Shown here one piece after another: positions 2,409 through 64,000 of a stretch of 64,000 bases of DNA. A program made the translations under genes and the position numbers. The notes below the pieces were generated by a model. The model searched no databases. It was not told the origin of the DNA and saw only the letters and a program-made list of their open reading frames with translations. This DNA is from a phage. Numbering within the stretch: the first letter of the stretch is position 1; each line of letters starts with the position of its first letter. The stretch lies in the sequence record PX915677.1; one strand, 5' to 3'.

Positions 2409-4685
2409 ATGATCGTTTATAATAACCAAGCACCTGATGCAGTGAATAACGTTGGGCAGTTTGGTGCTACTGAAGGCTCTATCGGAGCTTACAAGCAAGC
2501 AGCAGAATATGCAGCTGACTCCAAATATTGGGCACTGCTAGCAGAATCTAAGTTTGGTACAATTGATGATTTAACCGCTGAAGTAGAACGTCTATATCAA
2601 CAGGGTGTTCTGATGAAGCAGGATATTGAAGATCTTAAGCAGGATTTTAAGGATCAAGATGCTCGTTTGATGACTCTGATTGCCCAAACCAACGCAGCAG
2701 TATCGGATGCTAATAATGCCGTTGCTCTCATTAACCAAAAACTTATTGAAGTCCAGAATCAGCTTGATGTTCTGTTAGGAATGTCTGTTGATGTAACAAC
2801 TCTCCCTCCGGGAACTCCGGCTACTGGCTCTTTTAATCCTAACACTGGTGTAATCTCTTTAGGTATTCCAGAAGGTGATCCCGGAAAAGATGGTTCTGTT
2901 AAGGATTTGGATACAGCACCTACAGGTGTTCCAGAGCTAGGTGATTTAGGTTTCTATGTTGACAAAGATGACAATACCGTCCACAAAACTACTCTAGATA
3001 ACATTGCTAACTTAATCCCATCTGTCCGTTCTGTCTCTATTAACGGCGGTCCAGCTCTTGATGGAGAGGTTGCTCTAACGCTTAACAAAGAGACGGTAGG
3101 TTTAGGAAATGTTCTGAACGTTGCTCAGTACAGTCGTCAAGAGATTAATGACAAGTTTGATAAAACCACCAAGACATATCAATCTAAAGCAGAAGCTGAT
3201 GCTGACGCTCAATATCGTCAAGTTGGAGAGAAAGTCTTAGTTTGGGAAGCTACTAAGTATGAGTTCTACACTGTTGCTGCTAACAAAACATTAACTCCTG
3301 TTAAAACTGAAGGTAGAATTCTTACTGTTAATTCCCGTTCTCCAGACTCCAGTGGTAATATTGACATTACCATTCCAACAGGAAACCCTTCTCTATATCT
3401 TGGTGAGATGGTAATGTTCCCTTATGACCCAACAAAGAATATCTCCTATCCGGGCGTTCTTCCAGCCGATGGTCGTCTAGTGTCTAAAGAGTCTGCTTCA
3501 GATTTAGGCCCATCCCTTGTCAGTGGACAACTTCCTGTTGTTTCTGAAACTGAATGGCAAGCAGGGGCTAAACAATACTTCTCTTGGGGTAAATTGGCAG
3601 ATGGTATTACCGATGCAGATTCTACTAATTTTATCAACATTCGACTTCCTGATTGGACTGGAGGGGAGGCAATAAGAGCACCAGATTCTGATAAAGACTC
3701 TCAGTACAATGGGTCTGTACAGGCTCAGAAACCTTATGTTGTTACTGTAAATAACCAAGCTCCTGATGAGATTACTGGTAATGTGAACATCTCCAGATCA
3801 ATTTTAGGTGCTGCCGCTTCTGGTACAAACTCTGATATAACATCCCTCACGGGACTCACTACAGCACTGTCTGTCACACAAGGAGGCACTGGAGCTAAAA
3901 ATGCTGCTAGTGCTCGTTCTAATCTAGGGTTGGGAAGTGTTTCTACTCTGGATAATGTACCTATTGCTAATGGTGGGACAGGGGCTGGAGATGCTGCTGG
4001 TGCAAGGTTCAATATTGGAGCGCTAAGTAACACCCCAGCAAATTCAGGCGTAGGTGGTACTGGGGATCGTGTCCAACATGCCTCCGGGAACGGCCTGTTT
4101 ACTTTAGACTTGTTTAACTGCTACTGGTATATGCAGCCAGAGGATACTAACTTCTGGATTGCCCACGGTGTGTCATATGCAGGGTCTGGTGGCGAAGCCT
4201 CACAATACGGTCGCATATCTTACGCAATAAAGATTGCAGACGGAACAATAAAATATGTCCATTGTCTTACAAACAAAAACACCACTGTTGATGTAAACGG
4301 ATTTATCAAAGCGGCATCTCCGGTAGTTCATATTTACTCCGACGGTCGATATGAGACGAACGAGGAATCTGAGGGGGTTAATGTCATTCGGCAAGGTGTT
4401 GGTGAGTACTTGATTACCGGTTGCCTTGGCTTAAACGCAGATGCAAAATGGGGAGGCATTGACGGCGGCTTTGAAATCCCTACTGACCGCAACAAACAAC
4501 CTAGGGTTTGGCTGGACTATGAGATTAAAGAAGATGGTTCTATTTTAGTTAAAACCTATCACAGAACCCATCCAACCTCTCCGGTTTTTGCTAGAAATGA
4601 GATAGAAGGTTTTTCTGACGGTGATCCTATTGATATCCCGAGTGATGCTTTTATTTCAGTTCGTGTTGAAATGCCTTCTGAGTAA
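2409..4685 (+). CDS. tail fiber protein
   Basis: N-terminal coiled coil; repeated GGTGA..AAxARxNLGLG-type motifs (TQGGTGAKNAASARSNLGLGSV, ANGGTGAGDAAGARFNIGA) typical of phage tail fibers. Confidence 0.6.
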   Translation: MIVYNNQAPDAVNNVGQFGATEGSIGAYKQAAEYAADSKYWALLAESKFGTIDDLTAEVERLYQQGVLMKQDIEDLKQDFKDQDARLMTLIAQTNAAVSDANNAVALINQKLIEVQNQLDVLLGMSVDVTTLPPGTPATGSFNPNTGVISLGIPEGDPGKDGSVKDLDTAPTGVPELGDLGFYVDKDDNTVHKTTLDNIANLIPSVRSVSINGGPALDGEVALTLNKETVGLGNVLNVAQYSRQEINDKFDKTTKTYQSKAEADADAQYRQVGEKVLVWEATKYEFYTVAANKTLTPVKTEGRILTVNSRSPDSSGNIDITIPTGNPSLYLGEMVMFPYDPTKNISYPGVLPADGRLVSKESASDLGPSLVSGQLPVVSETEWQAGAKQYFSWGKLADGITDADSTNFINIRLPDWTGGEAIRAPDSDKDSQYNGSVQAQKPYVVTVNNQAPDEITGNVNISRSILGAAASGTNSDITSLTGLTTALSVTQGGTGAKNAASARSNLGLGSVSTLDNVPIANGGTGAGDAAGARFNIGALSNTPANSGVGGTGDRVQHASGNGLFTLDLFNCYWYMQPEDTNFWIAHGVSYAGSGGEASQYGRISYAIKIADGTIKYVHCLTNKNTTVDVNGFIKAASPVVHIYSDGRYETNEESEGVNVIRQGVGEYLITGCLGLNADAKWGGIDGGFEIPTDRNKQPRVWLDYEIKEDGSILVKTYHRTHPTSPVFARNEIEGFSDGDPIDIPSDAFISVRVEMPSE

Positions 4686-29391: not shown

Positions 29392-29400
29392 TATACATTA
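29392..29400 (-). promoter_or_regulatory. candidate phage-specific promoter element TAATGTATA (minus strand)
   Basis: 59 nt upstream of SSB-like gene start 29332. Confidence 0.4.
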
Positions 29401-48406: not shown

Positions 48407-50437
48407 TTAACCTCTATTCAATGAACATTTAGGAGAATTACAATAAACTTGATTCATAGAACCAAGCGTACAACTTTCAGCATCGCGCCACGGAATCTGC
48501 TTAAAACACTCTGAGCAGTATCCGAGGGTTGACCACATGGCTTTGGTGAAGTCAGTGCTTCGGTTTCCGTCGAAGCTGACAACAGTTTTTCGGAGAGCTG
48601 TTCGTGATTCAGGAAACACACCTGCTTTCTCAGCAGGTTCCTCCTTTTTTGGCTTAGTTGAGATTGCAAAAATACTGTTGCTACGTTTCTCAACATAAGC
48701 ATCAACAACATCCTCCAGAGTGATGCCTGTCTGTTTCGCTGATGAAGGTAATATAGTCATACGACCAATCATTTCTTCAGTTACACGTAAAGCAAACTCG
48801 GGACGACGGGCGTTTGTTGTATCTGTTGCTTTAATCCATACATAACCATCTTTGATCGTAGCATTAGATACTTTCTTCTTTACTTCTACAGCGCAGACTT
48901 TACAGATATCTTCACCACGAAGACGACTAAGTTCATCATCGAACTCATTCTCTGTTTTAACTTCACCACAGATTTCACAAACACCAATAGGAGTTTCCTC
49001 CTCTTCTTCCTCTTTAGGTTTAGTCAAACCTTCCAGACATTCAGGATGCCAATAGCACTGATATGCGAAGACTGCTTTAGGTGCATCCTTCCAATCAATG
49101 TGTTTGTCACAACCACCACAATCACCATGAGAGTGTGCTTCCCAGAATTTACGAGTGATAGTAACGCCGTTCTTGTTGACGAAACTATCATTCATATCAA
49201 AAGGGATATCATCATCGAAGTCAGCAGTAGTTGACTCAGGCTCCTTTTTCTCCAGAGATGGGTCAACAAAACGACCTGCTGTGATCACTAAGCGAACCAT
49301 AGCATTAACTTCGGAGATGCAGGATACTGTCCCACGGTAAACAATTTTAGGGTCTTTCAGGGCATCCTGATAAGCCTTAATGTCTACGTTATGAACATCA
49401 CCTTCGATGTACTCTTGAGACTTCTCATCGTAGATATAACCAATCATCTTACCACGAGAAGGAACAGCACCAGCAGTTGCATAAGGAACAAACTCATGTG
49501 GTGTGATTTCCACAGTCATATCGCGGCGAATATCAATGTTTCGATCGCTTGCGATTTTGTTTTGACTTACCACTGCGTTTCTTCGACGAACGTCTGCCGC
49601 TGTCACTCCTGGCTTCGTGTCGTAAGGATTGCTTGTACTGCTTTTTGAGGAACTTTGATAGTTGCTTTGGCTGTAGTTGTTCGAGTAGTAACTGGCCCAA
49701 CGATTGACTACCGTAAAAACCGGAAGCTCGTGGGCGACCTCTTCAACCAGAGTCATACTGTTGTTTGACATATCAAAGATATATTCTGTACCAACTTTAC
49801 ATTCAAAATGCTCGTCAATACGATTCTTATGAGACTTAGAACGCTTCAGAATCCACATCAACATATCTTCTTCAGAAGCACCAAACCAATCTCTGTTACA
49901 ACGTGCGAGGTGGAATGGACGCTCTTCGTTACGGATGATATGAAGACGGTTATCAGAAGCATCATGCCAGATTAAAGTGAAAGCACCATCCAGCTTTTGA
50001 ATAGTCTCTGCTGCACCAATAGTGTTAATAGAGTGGCAGATGTTCTCACTGTCTACCTCGAAGTTTTTGCTGTCAGGTAACAGATCTTGGTCCATCAAGG
50101 TTCCGTTATGAACCAGAGTGATGTTACCATGTTGGAAAGGATGGGCGTTCTTGGCGTTAACTGCACCTTTCGTTGCATGACGGCTGTGACCAACAATCCA
50201 TGAAGGTGCTACAGTGTAAGCTGTTTCACCAGTGGTGTGCTTCTTGTACTCATCTTGTAGGATGAATGCGAAAGAAGGAAGAGCTTCTTTATAAGTGAAG
50301 ACTTCCTTAGTGCTTTTACGCTGACCAAAGATACCGGAGGAATGTTGTCCTCGGAATACTCCAGCATAAAAGAGTTGGTTAAATACGTCTAAATCAGTGC
50401 TTGACAGATTACCGCCAGCTAATACGATGCCACAAAT
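48407..50437 (-). CDS. class-II (Ntn) glutamine amidotransferase domain protein with Cys-rich C-terminal region; apparent ATT start
   Basis: Frame open from stop 50441-43; N-terminus ?CGIVLAGG, HSRHATKG and LVHNGTL motifs; no ATG/GTG/TTG before codon 114; SD aggtgg 8 nt upstream of ATT-TGT; multiple CxxC pairs C-terminally. Confidence 0.6.
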   Translation of the reverse strand: MCGIVLAGGNLSSTDLDVFNQLFYAGVFRGQHSSGIFGQRKSTKEVFTYKEALPSFAFILQDEYKKHTTGETAYTVAPSWIVGHSRHATKGAVNAKNAHPFQHGNITLVHNGTLMDQDLLPDSKNFEVDSENICHSINTIGAAETIQKLDGAFTLIWHDASDNRLHIIRNEERPFHLARCNRDWFGASEEDMLMWILKRSKSHKNRIDEHFECKVGTEYIFDMSNNSMTLVEEVAHELPVFTVVNRWASYYSNNYSQSNYQSSSKSSTSNPYDTKPGVTAADVRRRNAVVSQNKIASDRNIDIRRDMTVEITPHEFVPYATAGAVPSRGKMIGYIYDEKSQEYIEGDVHNVDIKAYQDALKDPKIVYRGTVSCISEVNAMVRLVITAGRFVDPSLEKKEPESTTADFDDDIPFDMNDSFVNKNGVTITRKFWEAHSHGDCGGCDKHIDWKDAPKAVFAYQCYWHPECLEGLTKPKEEEEEETPIGVCEICGEVKTENEFDDELSRLRGEDICKVCAVEVKKKVSNATIKDGYVWIKATDTTNARRPEFALRVTEEMIGRMTILPSSAKQTGITLEDVVDAYVEKRSNSIFAISTKPKKEEPAEKAGVFPESRTALRKTVVSFDGNRSTDFTKAMWSTLGYCSECFKQIPWRDAESCTLGSMNQVYCNSPKCSLNRG

Positions 50438-50516
50438 TTTCTAATCCACCTGAAGGGTAAACCCTTTCATCTAATTAACCTTTAAATTGTGCCCCTTTAT
50501 CAGAGGCACCCATTGA

Positions 50517-51620
50517 TTACAGCGCTTGCTCTAACTGATTTTCCAGATGGTCTGGAATGTACCCTGTGATATTGCTATCACTGTGACCTGACTCACGTAG
50601 TAAGTCAAAAATAGCACGGATACGCTGTTCTGGAGCGTGTCTTACTTGAGATAGGTCTGCTGTACGAAGCATAACCAGAATCTCTTGGTACAAATTGTTA
50701 GCGTTCCCTCGGACATATCCAAGGAATCCGTAGAAGTCTGACATATGACGTAAGTCAACAAGAACATCTCCGTTGGAGTTAGTTCTACGTAAACGAATAC
50801 GACCAGACTGTTCTACTTCATGAGAACGGCAATACAAAACATCACGGGCCATACAATACCCTGAATGCAAATCAGATTCATCCAGATTGTAATCCAGAGG
50901 AAGATAAGGAAGCATTGGGGCGAATCGTACAGTATTTAAATGCTCAACAAACTGATCGTTGCTCATATCTGCGTTATCTAAAGCCAGCTTCTTCAACATC
51001 AAGAAGCGGTTAACCAGATTGAGAAGTTGACCACGTTTCCACTTAGGCTCGCTGATACGGAACTCAATCGAACCGTATTGGGCAAGTGGCAGAAGGTTCA
51101 GGGATGTATACTTATCCCATGAACGAACCAGACGGTTGAAGAACTCTTCACCATCGTAGTTAAATGCGTCAGAGGCATTCATTACCTGTGCTTGTACCAC
51201 TGCAAACGCAGGGCAGAAATTGCTACGGTAACGATGGTAGCCTGAGCACTTGAACAACATCTTTTCGTAGAAGGTCCAAGCGAGAATGGTTTTCTTGAGG
51301 ATATTACTATCAGCATCCCTCATATCCATATGAACGTGAGTAGAGCAACGCCAAGTCCCCTCGGCGTGCGATTCAGCTACTGCTTCACTCAGGTTGTTGA
51401 TAGCGTCTAACAACTCCTGTCCGTTGTAAGGTCGTGAACATACCATTTCACAACCGTTACGCAGGGAACCATCCTCTGTACAATCCCACATATCTGCTTC
51501 GATATGATCGGAACCTTCGAGTTCAAGTTCAATACCGACACCGCACTGAAGTGCAATTGAACTATGCGCCTCAGTTAAACGACCTTCTCGATATCCAAAA
51601 GTTTGCGCTACAGTTGTCAT
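50517..51620 (-). CDS. glutamine-synthetase-like amidoligase (carboxylate-amine ligase)
   Basis: GIELELEG, GSLRNG and GSIEFR motifs. Confidence 0.5.
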   Translation of the reverse strand: MTTVAQTFGYREGRLTEAHSSIALQCGVGIELELEGSDHIEADMWDCTEDGSLRNGCEMVCSRPYNGQELLDAINNLSEAVAESHAEGTWRCSTHVHMDMRDADSNILKKTILAWTFYEKMLFKCSGYHRYRSNFCPAFAVVQAQVMNASDAFNYDGEEFFNRLVRSWDKYTSLNLLPLAQYGSIEFRISEPKWKRGQLLNLVNRFLMLKKLALDNADMSNDQFVEHLNTVRFAPMLPYLPLDYNLDESDLHSGYCMARDVLYCRSHEVEQSGRIRLRRTNSNGDVLVDLRHMSDFYGFLGYVRGNANNLYQEILVMLRTADLSQVRHAPEQRIRAIFDLLRESGHSDSNITGYIPDHLENQLEQAL

Positions 51621-59487: not shown

Positions 59488-59563
59488 TGGTGCGCCCTAC
59501 AGGACTCGAACCTGTAACCAATAGCTTAGAAGGCTACTGCTCTATCCATTGAGCTAAGAGCGC
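59488..59563 (-). tRNA. tRNA-Arg (anticodon TCT)
   Basis: Hand-folded cloverleaf: acceptor GCGCTCT/AGGGCGC, D-arm GCTC-AATGGAT-AGAGC, anticodon loop CTTCTAA, T-arm ACAGG-TTCGAGT-CCTGT, encoded CCA. Confidence 0.8.
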
Positions 59564-63341: not shown

Positions 63342-64000
63342 TTACCACTCGTAACTTACACCAGCGCCCAGAACAGCGTCACTCTCTGAAGTCATTGCCA
63401 CTGATGCTTTAGTTACTACGTTTTCATTGAAACGAGCACTAACACCAATAGCAAGAGCAGATTCACCATCGTAAGCACCTACCCCAGCACCAACAGAGAA
63501 AGCAGATCCTTGACTTACTTGCGGGATGTTAGCCATTGCAGCCACGCCAGAAATACCAGCAGAGGCATGATCACGGTTACGGTCTACTTGTTTTTGCAAA
63601 GAAGCAAAACGTTTATTGGTGGATTGTTCCAGAGCTTTGATGGATTTGGCGTTAGCATTAACGGCAGACATATCTGCATCTTTACCATTTTTGCCATTTA
63701 ATCCGTCAACGCCATTCAAACCTGCTGCACCAGTTAGGCCAGTTTCGCCTCTCTTACCATCTGCACCAGAATCACCTTTTTCACCTTGAGCGCCTTGTTC
63801 TCCATCAATGCCATCTTTACCATCAATGCCATCTTTACCATCAATGCCATCTTTACCATCAATGCCATCTTTACCATCAATGCCATCTTTACCATCAATG
63901 CCATCTTTACCATCAATGCCATCTTTACCATCAATGCCATCTTTACCATCAATGCCATCTTTACCATCAATGCCATCTTTACCATCAATGCCATCTTTAC
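63342..64000 (-). CDS. collagen-like repeat protein with YadA-anchor-like C-terminal domain (5' partial, continues beyond window)
   Basis: Frame of listed ORF 63342..63719 stays open upstream through uninterrupted Gly-X-Y triplets (GET GLT GAA ... then (GKDGID)n); C-terminus GVAAMANIPQ...GAGVSYEW resembles trimeric autotransporter anchor. Confidence 0.55.
   Translation of the reverse strand, partial: KDGIDGKDGIDGKDGIDGKDGIDGKDGIDGKDGIDGKDGIDGKDGIDGKDGIDGKDGIDGKDGIDGEQGAQGEKGDSGADGKRGETGLTGAAGLNGVDGLNGKNGKDADMSAVNANAKSIKALEQSTNKRFASLQKQVDRNRDHASAGISGVAAMANIPQVSQGSAFSVGAGVGAYDGESALAIGVSARFNENVVTKASVAMTSESDAVLGAGVSYEW
63802..64000. repeat. perfect 18-bp tandem repeat array, at least 10 copies, truncated by window end
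   Basis: Unit ccatctttaccatcaatg repeated head-to-tail from 63811; encodes (GKDGID)n on the minus strand. Confidence 0.9.

Follow-up and report, generated by a model that had tools for sequence, protein, structure and literature searches.

Probable AUU initiation directly before the catalytic cysteine of a kuravirus glutamine amidotransferase

Where does translation begin in a gene whose reading frame is closed by a stop codon at one end and has no conventional start codon for its first 113 codons? The question is raised by a glutamine amidotransferase gene in PX915677.1, a 64,000-nt stretch of phage DNA (the window; all coordinates are positions in it, and the amidotransferase gene and its leader features lie on the minus strand). 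The window belongs to a Kuravirus, the region sharing 97-98% identity with phiEco32 and with some 70 other kuraviruses. Read 5' to 3', the start region is ATG AAA GGG TTT ACC CTT CAG GTG GAT TAG AAA ATT TGT GGC ATC GTA. A first-pass annotation, made from the letters alone, had proposed that initiation occurs at the ATT directly before the TGT codon of the catalytic Cys, pointing to the TAG that closes the frame, the AGGTGG Shine-Dalgarno (SD) sequence 8 nt upstream, and the motifs CGIV, HSRHATKG, and HNG downstream; we find every one of these elements in place. Its further claim that the first 113 codons contain no ATG, GTG, or TTG also holds, the first such codon being the TTG at codon 114. 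We conclude that the amidotransferase is probably translated from the AUU at 50437-35, with a probability of roughly 0.85. This is the best-supported reading because selection shows the N-terminal domain to be translated, the active-site residues lie upstream of codon 114, the frame is closed, the SD sequence is properly spaced, and ATT or ATC recurs directly before the Cys codon in relatives.

The N-terminal domain bears the marks of a translated, functional protein. Codons 2-113 are under strong purifying selection, with a dN/dS of ~0.09 relative to a kuravirus of the second clade (pS 0.65-0.79, synonymous sites being near saturation), and no stop codon interrupts this stretch in any relative compared. 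Given this selection, the N-terminal 113 codons are clearly translated, as judged by comparison between genomes. The protein begins (I/M)CGIVLAGG and carries GHSRHATKG at residues 83-91 and HNG at residues 110-112 (within VHNGT); it matches the Pfam models GATase_6 (55 bits, cut-off 27) and GATase_7 (27.4 bits, cut-off 25). A single-sequence search of solved structures gave no match and a family profile was required; this profile matches E. coli GlmS (1xff; E = 1e-22) and PurF (1ecb) from residue 1, with the Cys aligned to Cys1 of the mature chain. R86 (GHSRHATKG), N111-G112 (VHNGT), and D129 (VDSE) align to GlmS R73 (HTRWATHG), N98-G99 (VHNGI), and D123 (ETDTE), and an alignment of 35 homologues shows no variation at M1, C2, G3, R86, N111, G112, or D129. 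MCG is the N-terminus in 36 of 42 database homologues; P0024 and P0036, which have short N-termini, are cut by contig ends.

From the domain models and the conserved site residues, the N-terminal domain is predicted to be an active class-II, or N-terminal nucleophile (Ntn), glutamine amidotransferase. In enzymes of this class the alpha-amino group of Cys1 takes part in catalysis. Like the class-II domains of GlmS, PurF, and AsnB, the phage protein has the N-terminal Cys, the Arg, Asn-Gly, and Asp site residues, and GATase_6/7 matches; unlike them, it has no synthase domain of their types and continues into a Cys-rich C-terminal part of ~430 residues (48407-49700, minus strand) without a Pfam match. 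Several CxxC...CxxC motifs in this C-terminus resemble zinc ribbons, and homologues of ~400 aa also end in CxxC...CxxC.

These data bear directly on the alternative in which the first 113 codons are untranslated, the glutaminase half is a relic, and the real product is a protein of 562-563 aa starting at TTG114 or ATG115. This is the form that gene callers annotate and that many GenBank records carry, and the mechanical list of open reading frames (ORFs) likewise gives a 563-aa ORF from TTG114. Proteomics of the kuravirus SU10 detected the amidotransferase with nine peptides and lists it at 63.8 kDa (PMC4281155). However, 63.8 kDa is the mass computed for the truncated database entry and not a measured value; at full length, the protein would have a mass of 76.2 kDa. 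Starting at codon 114 would cost the protein its Cys, Arg, and Asn-Gly, leaving only D129 of the active site, and codon 115 is preceded by a weak GGA only. Together with the purifying selection on codons 2-113 and the lack of stops there in relatives, these points make an internal start very unlikely. Peptides that lie in residues 2-113 include GQHSSGIFGQR and EALPSFAFILQDEYK.

The gap itself is unusual. Among the 46 window frames of at least 150 codons, this one stands far apart with its 114 codons ahead of the canonical start, where real genes have at most 18; the exceptions in this survey are the window-end frames 1-522 and 63342-63998 and two frames, with 27-30 such codons, that overlap larger genes. 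At the gene's own rate of ATG, GTG, and TTG codons (3.9%), a gap of 112 codons free of canonical starts has P ~0.012. We considered selection against internal starts as the cause of the empty codons 2-113 and rejected it, since other relatives with ATT starts have 3-11 ATG, GTG, or TTG codons in the same stretch. On this comparison, the 113-codon gap is an accident specific to the kuravirus clade and not a selected feature. The frame at 63342-63998 (minus strand) runs for 93 codons before a canonical start appears; since it reaches the end of the window, it is probably a cut gene.

The ATT is conserved without exception in the kuraviruses. A 61-nt query spanning the leader and the start matched 69 phage records at 100% identity, and a variant with one synonymous change (codon 3, GGC to GGT) matched another 28 at 100%, so that none of the 97 kuravirus records has lost the ATT. 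It is also found in seven metagenome contigs, one with a synonymous TGT to TGC change in the Cys codon, and in Aeromonas phage BUCT695, which belongs to another family and whose protein is 52% identical; here the leader is 92% identical, including ATG...TAG AAA ATT TGT. The comparison of start regions in related phages proposed in the first-pass annotation thus favors the AUU. Nearer relatives outside the kuraviruses have ATG-TGT or GTG-TGT: L014 (71% identity), L008 and L009 (64%), Salmonella phage 7-11, and the Aeromonas phages LAh_9 and APT65.

Because more than 100 independent sequences carry the ATT, a sequencing error of a true ATG is excluded by the comparison. The same count of independent genomes and contigs speaks against the other ways in which the ATT start could be an artefact or a site of recoding, namely a frameshift or a bypass like that of T4 gene 60, from the AAA at codon 2 of the leader to the AAA at 50440-38. 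Matching AAA codons do flank the hairpin, the stop, and an SD-like element in superficial likeness to the gene 60 bypass, and in the relative L013 such an event would encode MTKI-C. But none of the upstream ORFs in other frames extends to the site, a bypass after a nascent chain of two residues would lack the nascent-peptide signal that gene 60 requires, and no Rfam frameshift or bypass element scores above noise. We give artefact or recoding next to no chance.

The start call is already public and hence not new. A 2031-nt coding sequence (CDS) from the ATT has been annotated in phiEco32 (EU330206) since 2008, and in its RefSeq copy, as phi32_83, 'glutamine amidotransferase' (ABY52884.1 / YP_001671828.1), and the records of SU10, LAMP, and phages of the Bas collection have a CDS of 676 aa from the identical ATT. 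These copies and phiEco32 gp83 are the same gene at ~98% DNA identity, with no difference in the start region. Among the 60 records listed, 46 of the 55 that are annotated have no CDS over the ATT, and the two records that we checked, those of phage Paul and of BUCT695 (RefSeq), carry an N-terminally truncated gene. In BUCT695 the annotated CDS begins at an internal ATG, without the catalytic Cys. This matters for annotation: truncated models drop the catalytic Cys and half of the active site, and proteomics searched against them is blind to the N-terminal domain. The features of the locus are collected in Table 1.

Table 1. Features of the amidotransferase locus in the window.
Feature	Position	Strand	Remarks
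Glutamine amidotransferase gene (phiEco32 gp83 orthologue)	48407..50437	-	676 codons, ATT to TAA (48409-07); translation, Pfam, and phi32_83 give the same extent
TTG, codon 114, first canonical in-frame start	50096..50098	-	ATG is codon 115; gene callers take one of these, giving 562-563 aa, 63.8 kDa
TGT, predicted catalytic N-terminal nucleophile Cys (residue 1 once Met is gone)	50432..50434	-	profile alignment to Cys1 of GlmS and PurF
ATT, proposed initiation codon (read as fMet)	50435..50437	-	intact in 97/97 kuravirus records
TAG closing the frame 5' of ATT	50441-50443	-	AAA 50440-38 lies between TAG and ATT
AGGTGG Shine-Dalgarno	50446..50451	-	8-nt spacer (ATTAGAAA) to ATT
Hairpin H1, AAGGG-UUUA-CCCUU	50453..50466	-	ends 1 nt 5' of Shine-Dalgarno
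Leader mini-ORF MKGFTLQVD (stop), 9 codons, in frame	50441..50470	-	AUG 50470-68; stop 3 nt before ATT
Invariant block, 52 nt	50433..50484	-	16 distinct kuravirus sequences aligned; flanks vary
Hairpin H0, 8 bp (GUGCCUCU...AGGGGCAC), ~-14 kcal/mol	50489..50509	-	directly 3' of amidoligase stop
Upstream amidoligase gene (phiEco32 gp84 orthologue)	50517..51620	-	same early operon; ends 79 nt 5' of ATT

Starts of this kind recur across the family. A scan of IMG/VR with a family profile gave 80 diverse loci, out of 376 relatives there, and we could place the catalytic Cys codon in 77; the codon before it is ATG in 65, ATT in seven, ATC in two, and TTG in two, the remaining one reading ATG-TGC-TGT. 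A neighbourhood scan added two ATT/ATC cases, bringing the IMG/VR total to 11 contigs (around L064 it returned only L064 itself), and further cases are L034, which came from a truncated database protein, L013, and BUCT695. In a rough neighbor-joining tree the ATT/ATC members fall in at least eight separate places. Their SD consensus, AGGAGGAT, is fixed at positions -14 to -7, position -9 is G in 92%, and the individual relatives have AGGAGG, AGGAG, or GGAGG at a spacing equal to that in the window; the purine-rich region of ATG members is more diffuse. As to whether the SD sequence is also stronger in ATT/ATC members, we saw a trend only (p = 0.06).

Some of these start regions are strikingly similar in distant lineages. 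L061, L076, L080, and L118 share a near-identical SD and spacer, AGGAGGATAG..., and L059, L064, and L078 share CTAGGAGATGAGAAA. Loci with either sequence carry TAG or TGA at -7 to -5, counted from the ATT or ATC; in L076 this triplet is the stop codon of the upstream gene, and in L078 it closes a mini-ORF of 5 codons whose start lies inside the hairpin.

The relatives also help to judge whether the window's protein might instead start at the AUG of the in-frame leader ORF, read through the UAG, and expose Cys1 by removing a 12-residue propeptide (MKGFTLQVD-X-KI) from itself. Propeptides are known in class-II amidotransferases; that of Bacillus subtilis PurF, 11 residues long, is self-removed. 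Chains of this B. subtilis enzyme (1ao0, 1gph) are among the structure matches of the family profile. The leader ORF is in frame and begins exactly 12 codons before the Cys, and an Ile always stands directly before the Cys. In L034 (MQGRTLKDCYTI-C) and L059 (MTVFIRLGDEKI-C) the corresponding 12-codon extension from an ATG is open, which keeps the idea alive for these two contigs, not for the window. There, TAG serves other frames as an ordinary stop, and the TAG of the leader is kept in the 97 kuraviruses and BUCT695; the window contains no suppressor tRNA, its only tRNA gene being tRNA-Arg(TCT), and we found reassignment of TAG or its suppression by a tRNA unsupported. Natural readthrough of UAG in E. 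coli falls far below the efficiency of AUU initiation.

Moreover, in seven of nine ATT/ATC loci there is no ATG, GTG, or TTG between the previous in-frame stop and the ATT or ATC, so that, as far as the reading frames tell, a propeptide-type product is impossible there. Within the leader, ACC CTT is identical in the kuraviruses, BUCT695, and L034, and the stem in L059 differs yet still pairs, pointing to a constraint on RNA rather than on peptide. For the window, then, a self-cleaved propeptide seems highly improbable. In L034 (1298-1340) and L059 (~396-437), two distant relatives, the open stretch from the ATG to the Cys measures exactly 12 codons, as long as the kuravirus leader ORF plus 'KI'; the agreement may be an accident of a shared cassette, or the extension may be a genuine short propeptide.

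A second feature sets the ATT/ATC members apart. Counting perfect Watson-Crick stems of at least 5 bp that end 11-16 nt before the start codon, we found a hairpin (5-7 bp) abutting the SD sequence in 11 of 13 ATT/ATC members, compared with two of 67 ATG members. At least nine stems have unrelated sequences: AAGGG/CCCUU, CCGUA/UACGG, GAACC/GGUUC, AGACU/AGUCU, AAUGC/GCAUU, ACGAC/GUCGU, CCUAG/CUAGG, GUAGC/GCUAC, and AGAGU/ACUCU. Since the stems are unrelated and all four Watson-Crick pair types are seen at each of the five stem positions, what is conserved, by the evidence of covariation, is the structure of the SD-adjacent hairpin and not its sequence. A hairpin just 5' of a ribosome-binding site insulates it from pairing with upstream RNA and protects the 5' side of the mRNA. 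We infer that the hairpin may compensate for the weak start codon.

Several observations weigh against AUU initiation in the window or temper the evidence for it. Protein-level proof of the AUU start was not found in the literature, where the SU10 study is the sole proteomics found (PMC4281155), and its table is uninformative on the N-terminal domain because the listed mass matches the truncated model. The association of hairpins with ATT/ATC starts is strong by Fisher's test (p = 5.5e-10), a statistic that ignores the relatedness among the sequences. In BUCT695 the SD sequence is AGGCGG and thus weaker. An alternative fold predicted for the kuraviruses, GGUUUACC/GGUGGAUU, would sequester the SD sequence; it is not kept in BUCT695. 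Finally, three relatives have a canonical start upstream in an open frame (a GTG 3 codons upstream in L013 and an ATG 12 codons upstream in L034 and L059), and in these a short, self-cleaved propeptide would be an alternative to starting at the ATT.

In the kuraviruses, conservation reaches well beyond the start codon, over a 52-nt block. Around it there is variation in the H0 loop, in the last part of the amidoligase gene, and at synonymous sites in the amidotransferase. Invariance over all 52 nt is more than the hairpin, SD sequence, and start codon should need. We rejected a promoter as the reason: the coding strand has no sigma-70-like site, and the motif of the phiEco32 gp36 phage-sigma promoter, TAATGTATA, is absent there. 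The leader is single-copy in the window, which disposes of a repeated element. An Rfam scan of the leader at a permissive threshold gave noise only, with a best E of 0.35, far below gathering scores. BUCT695 and some relatives of the ATG type have AAATGTAA-like sequences upstream. On the opposite (plus) strand, a sigma-70-like match, TTGACA-16-TACGAT (10/12), lies at 50401-50428 and points antisense into the leader; 0.7 chance matches are expected, the other kuravirus clade does not preserve its -35 element, and it is probably fortuitous.

The block also contains the 9-codon leader ORF. Its ATG has AAAGG 8 nt upstream, and both line up with the true ATG start of L014, a relative of the ATG type (AATTTAAAGG-N8-ATG). 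From this alignment, the kuravirus arrangement looks like an in-frame insertion of 33 nt between an ancestral ATG and the Cys codon. The leader ORF reads MKGLTLQAD (stop) in BUCT695, and in L034 the homologous 12 codons are open. Farther upstream, the changes in the stem of H0 are compensatory between kuravirus clades (GUGCC/GGCAC versus GCGC/GCGC) and its loop is variable; its U-run is too short for a classical terminator, and it may be an RNA processing or stabilizing element. A long-range helix enclosing the leader (GGUUAAU..GAUG with CAUC..AUUAGCU), which is predicted in kuraviruses, was discarded, as it is not conserved in BUCT695.

The leader ORF raises the possibility that the AUU is used mainly by termination and reinitiation, a variant of AUU initiation in which ribosomes translate the leader, melt H1, stop at the UAG, and restart 3 nt further on, held by AGGUGG. 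The distance from stop to AUU is the same as at E. coli thrS-infC (UAA GGU AUU), where upstream translation about doubles output (PMC3592434). The AAAGG 8 nt before the leader AUG and their match to the true start of L014 are consistent with translation of the leader, its AUG, frame, and stop are kept in BUCT695, and a spacing of 4 nt separates the upstream gene's stop from the ATT in L076. Yet a leader ORF that ends close to the start is missing from most ATT/ATC relatives, BUCT695 has no SD sequence before the leader AUG, and the predicted kuravirus fold pairs this AUG (unpaired probability 0.1). The leader ORFs of the kuraviruses and BUCT695 differ by two substitutions only, each of them non-synonymous, giving no sign of selection on the peptide. 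We regard reinitiation as the main route as possible but doubtful.

How would initiation at the AUU proceed? The 30S subunit would be positioned by the AGGUGG 8 nt upstream, and initiator tRNA would read AUU as fMet. Deformylase and methionine aminopeptidase would then take off the Met, as expected when the next residue is small, like Cys, and the Cys would become residue 1, the nucleophile of the class-II glutaminase domain. The hairpin 5' of the SD sequence probably helps, keeping the site exposed and/or protecting the mRNA, and ribosomes that terminate on the leader ORF could re-initiate at the AUU 3 nt on, as at thrS-infC. The product would have the N-terminal peptide CGIVLAGGNLSSTDLDVFNQLFYAGVFR and an intact mass of ~76.05 kDa. 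In E. coli, AUU works at ~5-25% of the level of AUG (PMC3592434; PMC5499595); in the thrS-infC reporter study, AUU gave about 1/4 of the AUG level and upstream translation roughly doubled its output (PMC3592434). We infer actual use of the AUU, Met removal, a contribution of coupling, and any regulatory effects such as a lower yield or sensitivity to initiation factor 3 (IF3) from what we observe directly, which is the anatomy of the start region, its conservation, the translation of the N-terminal domain as seen from selection, and the recurrence of ATT/ATC codons with hairpins.

How did such starts arise repeatedly? Homing endonuclease genes of the HNH type provide one clue. An HNH_3 gene ends 24-34 nt before the ATT or ATC in L078 and L082 (Pfam, above cut-off) and 22 nt before the ATT in L034. 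In BUCT695 (L015), a fragment with the HNH N-terminal motif (CWLWTGCINSDGYP) and an HTH_3 fragment lie at 2804-3005, between an amidoligase-like gene and the leader, and together look like a homing endonuclease gene in decay. In the 1.2 kb upstream of 67 loci with ATG starts we found no HNH homologue, making it four ATT/ATC loci against none. In 51 of the 65 IMG/VR loci with ATG starts the amidoligase gene is directly upstream, and none of the 65 has an obvious endonuclease. The window itself has no endonuclease gene; the amidoligase adjoins instead, in a neighbourhood that is a phage amidoligase/ATP-grasp cluster.

Because HNH genes or their remnants occur only at ATT/ATC loci, the ATT/ATC members are scattered on the tree, and near-identical cassettes are found in distant phages (whose proteins are only ~30-50% identical), the region of hairpin, SD sequence, and AUU or AUC might be a transferable cassette, or the scar of a free-standing HNH homing endonuclease. 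The endonuclease would target the near-invariant DNA of the start, ATG-TGT-GGN-ATH-GT (M-C-G-I-V), a cleavage specificity that is hypothetical. An allele in which ATG has become ATT or ATC and the sequence upstream has been exchanged may be immune yet still initiate, with the strong, precisely spaced SD sequence and the hairpin offsetting the weak codon. The kuraviruses would then keep the cassette without the endonuclease, now as a fixed 52-nt control region with an infC-like leader ORF. The HNH association comprises four loci in three or four lineages and could reflect shared ancestry within a few clades, and we think the cassette unlikely to be the true explanation.

Known systems offer partial parallels. 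In the free-standing, or 'intronless', homing of the T4 seg and mob type, as here, an HNH_3 gene directly precedes the part of a conserved enzyme gene that varies least, lineages are scattered, and flanking sequence is common to distant phages; unlike that system, the window has no endonuclease gene, and immunity of the ATT allele is hypothetical. To our knowledge, natural genes initiated at AUU or AUC are very few in E. coli, infC and pcnB being the textbook cases. The start of infC resembles the kuravirus start in its AUU codon, an SD sequence inside the preceding frame, a stop 3 nt before the AUU (UAA GGU AUU compared with UAG AAA AUU), and conservation of the codon across relatives. In contrast, the infC AUU is the sensor for IF3 autoregulation, and for a phage amidotransferase we see no comparable logic; in kuraviruses a mini-ORF of 9 codons takes the place of the full upstream gene, and the SD sequence has a hairpin beside it. 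For pcnB, which encodes poly(A) polymerase, the weak AUU is read as limiting an enzyme harmful in excess, the same idea as the suggestion in the first-pass annotation that a weak start could throttle expression. The SU10 amidotransferase was detected as readily as its neighbours, about as readily as the ATP-grasp protein (PMC4281155).

Our literature search for ATT or AUU starts in phages or kuraviruses returned nothing specific, the papers on the phiEco32 genome and transcription (PMC2587145, PMC3275717) lying outside its reach. The combination of recurrent AUU/AUC starts, a position-fixed SD sequence, a covarying hairpin, and a link to HNH genes in this phage amidotransferase family appears to be undescribed in searchable sources. 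If true, a family in which about 1/8 of the members use AUU or AUC would provide natural variants for studying how context rescues weak start codons, and the same variants would bear on the use by phages of IF3-dependent start discrimination and on start-codon change driven by endonucleases.

Some observations concern the window as a whole. Five exact copies of the gp36 promoter motif TAATGTATA occur at 1106, 18161, and 29464 (plus strand) and at 29392 and 35956 (minus strand). No copy is near the amidotransferase gene, which fits the gene's place in an early operon. The only tRNA gene in the window, tRNA-Arg(TCT), is at 59488-59563 on the minus strand. The large frames of the window use the stop codons very unevenly, ending in TAA 37 times, TGA six times, and TAG three times. 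At least three copies of the promoter motif (1106, 18161, and 35956) lie 30-45 nt upstream of an SD sequence followed by an ATG.

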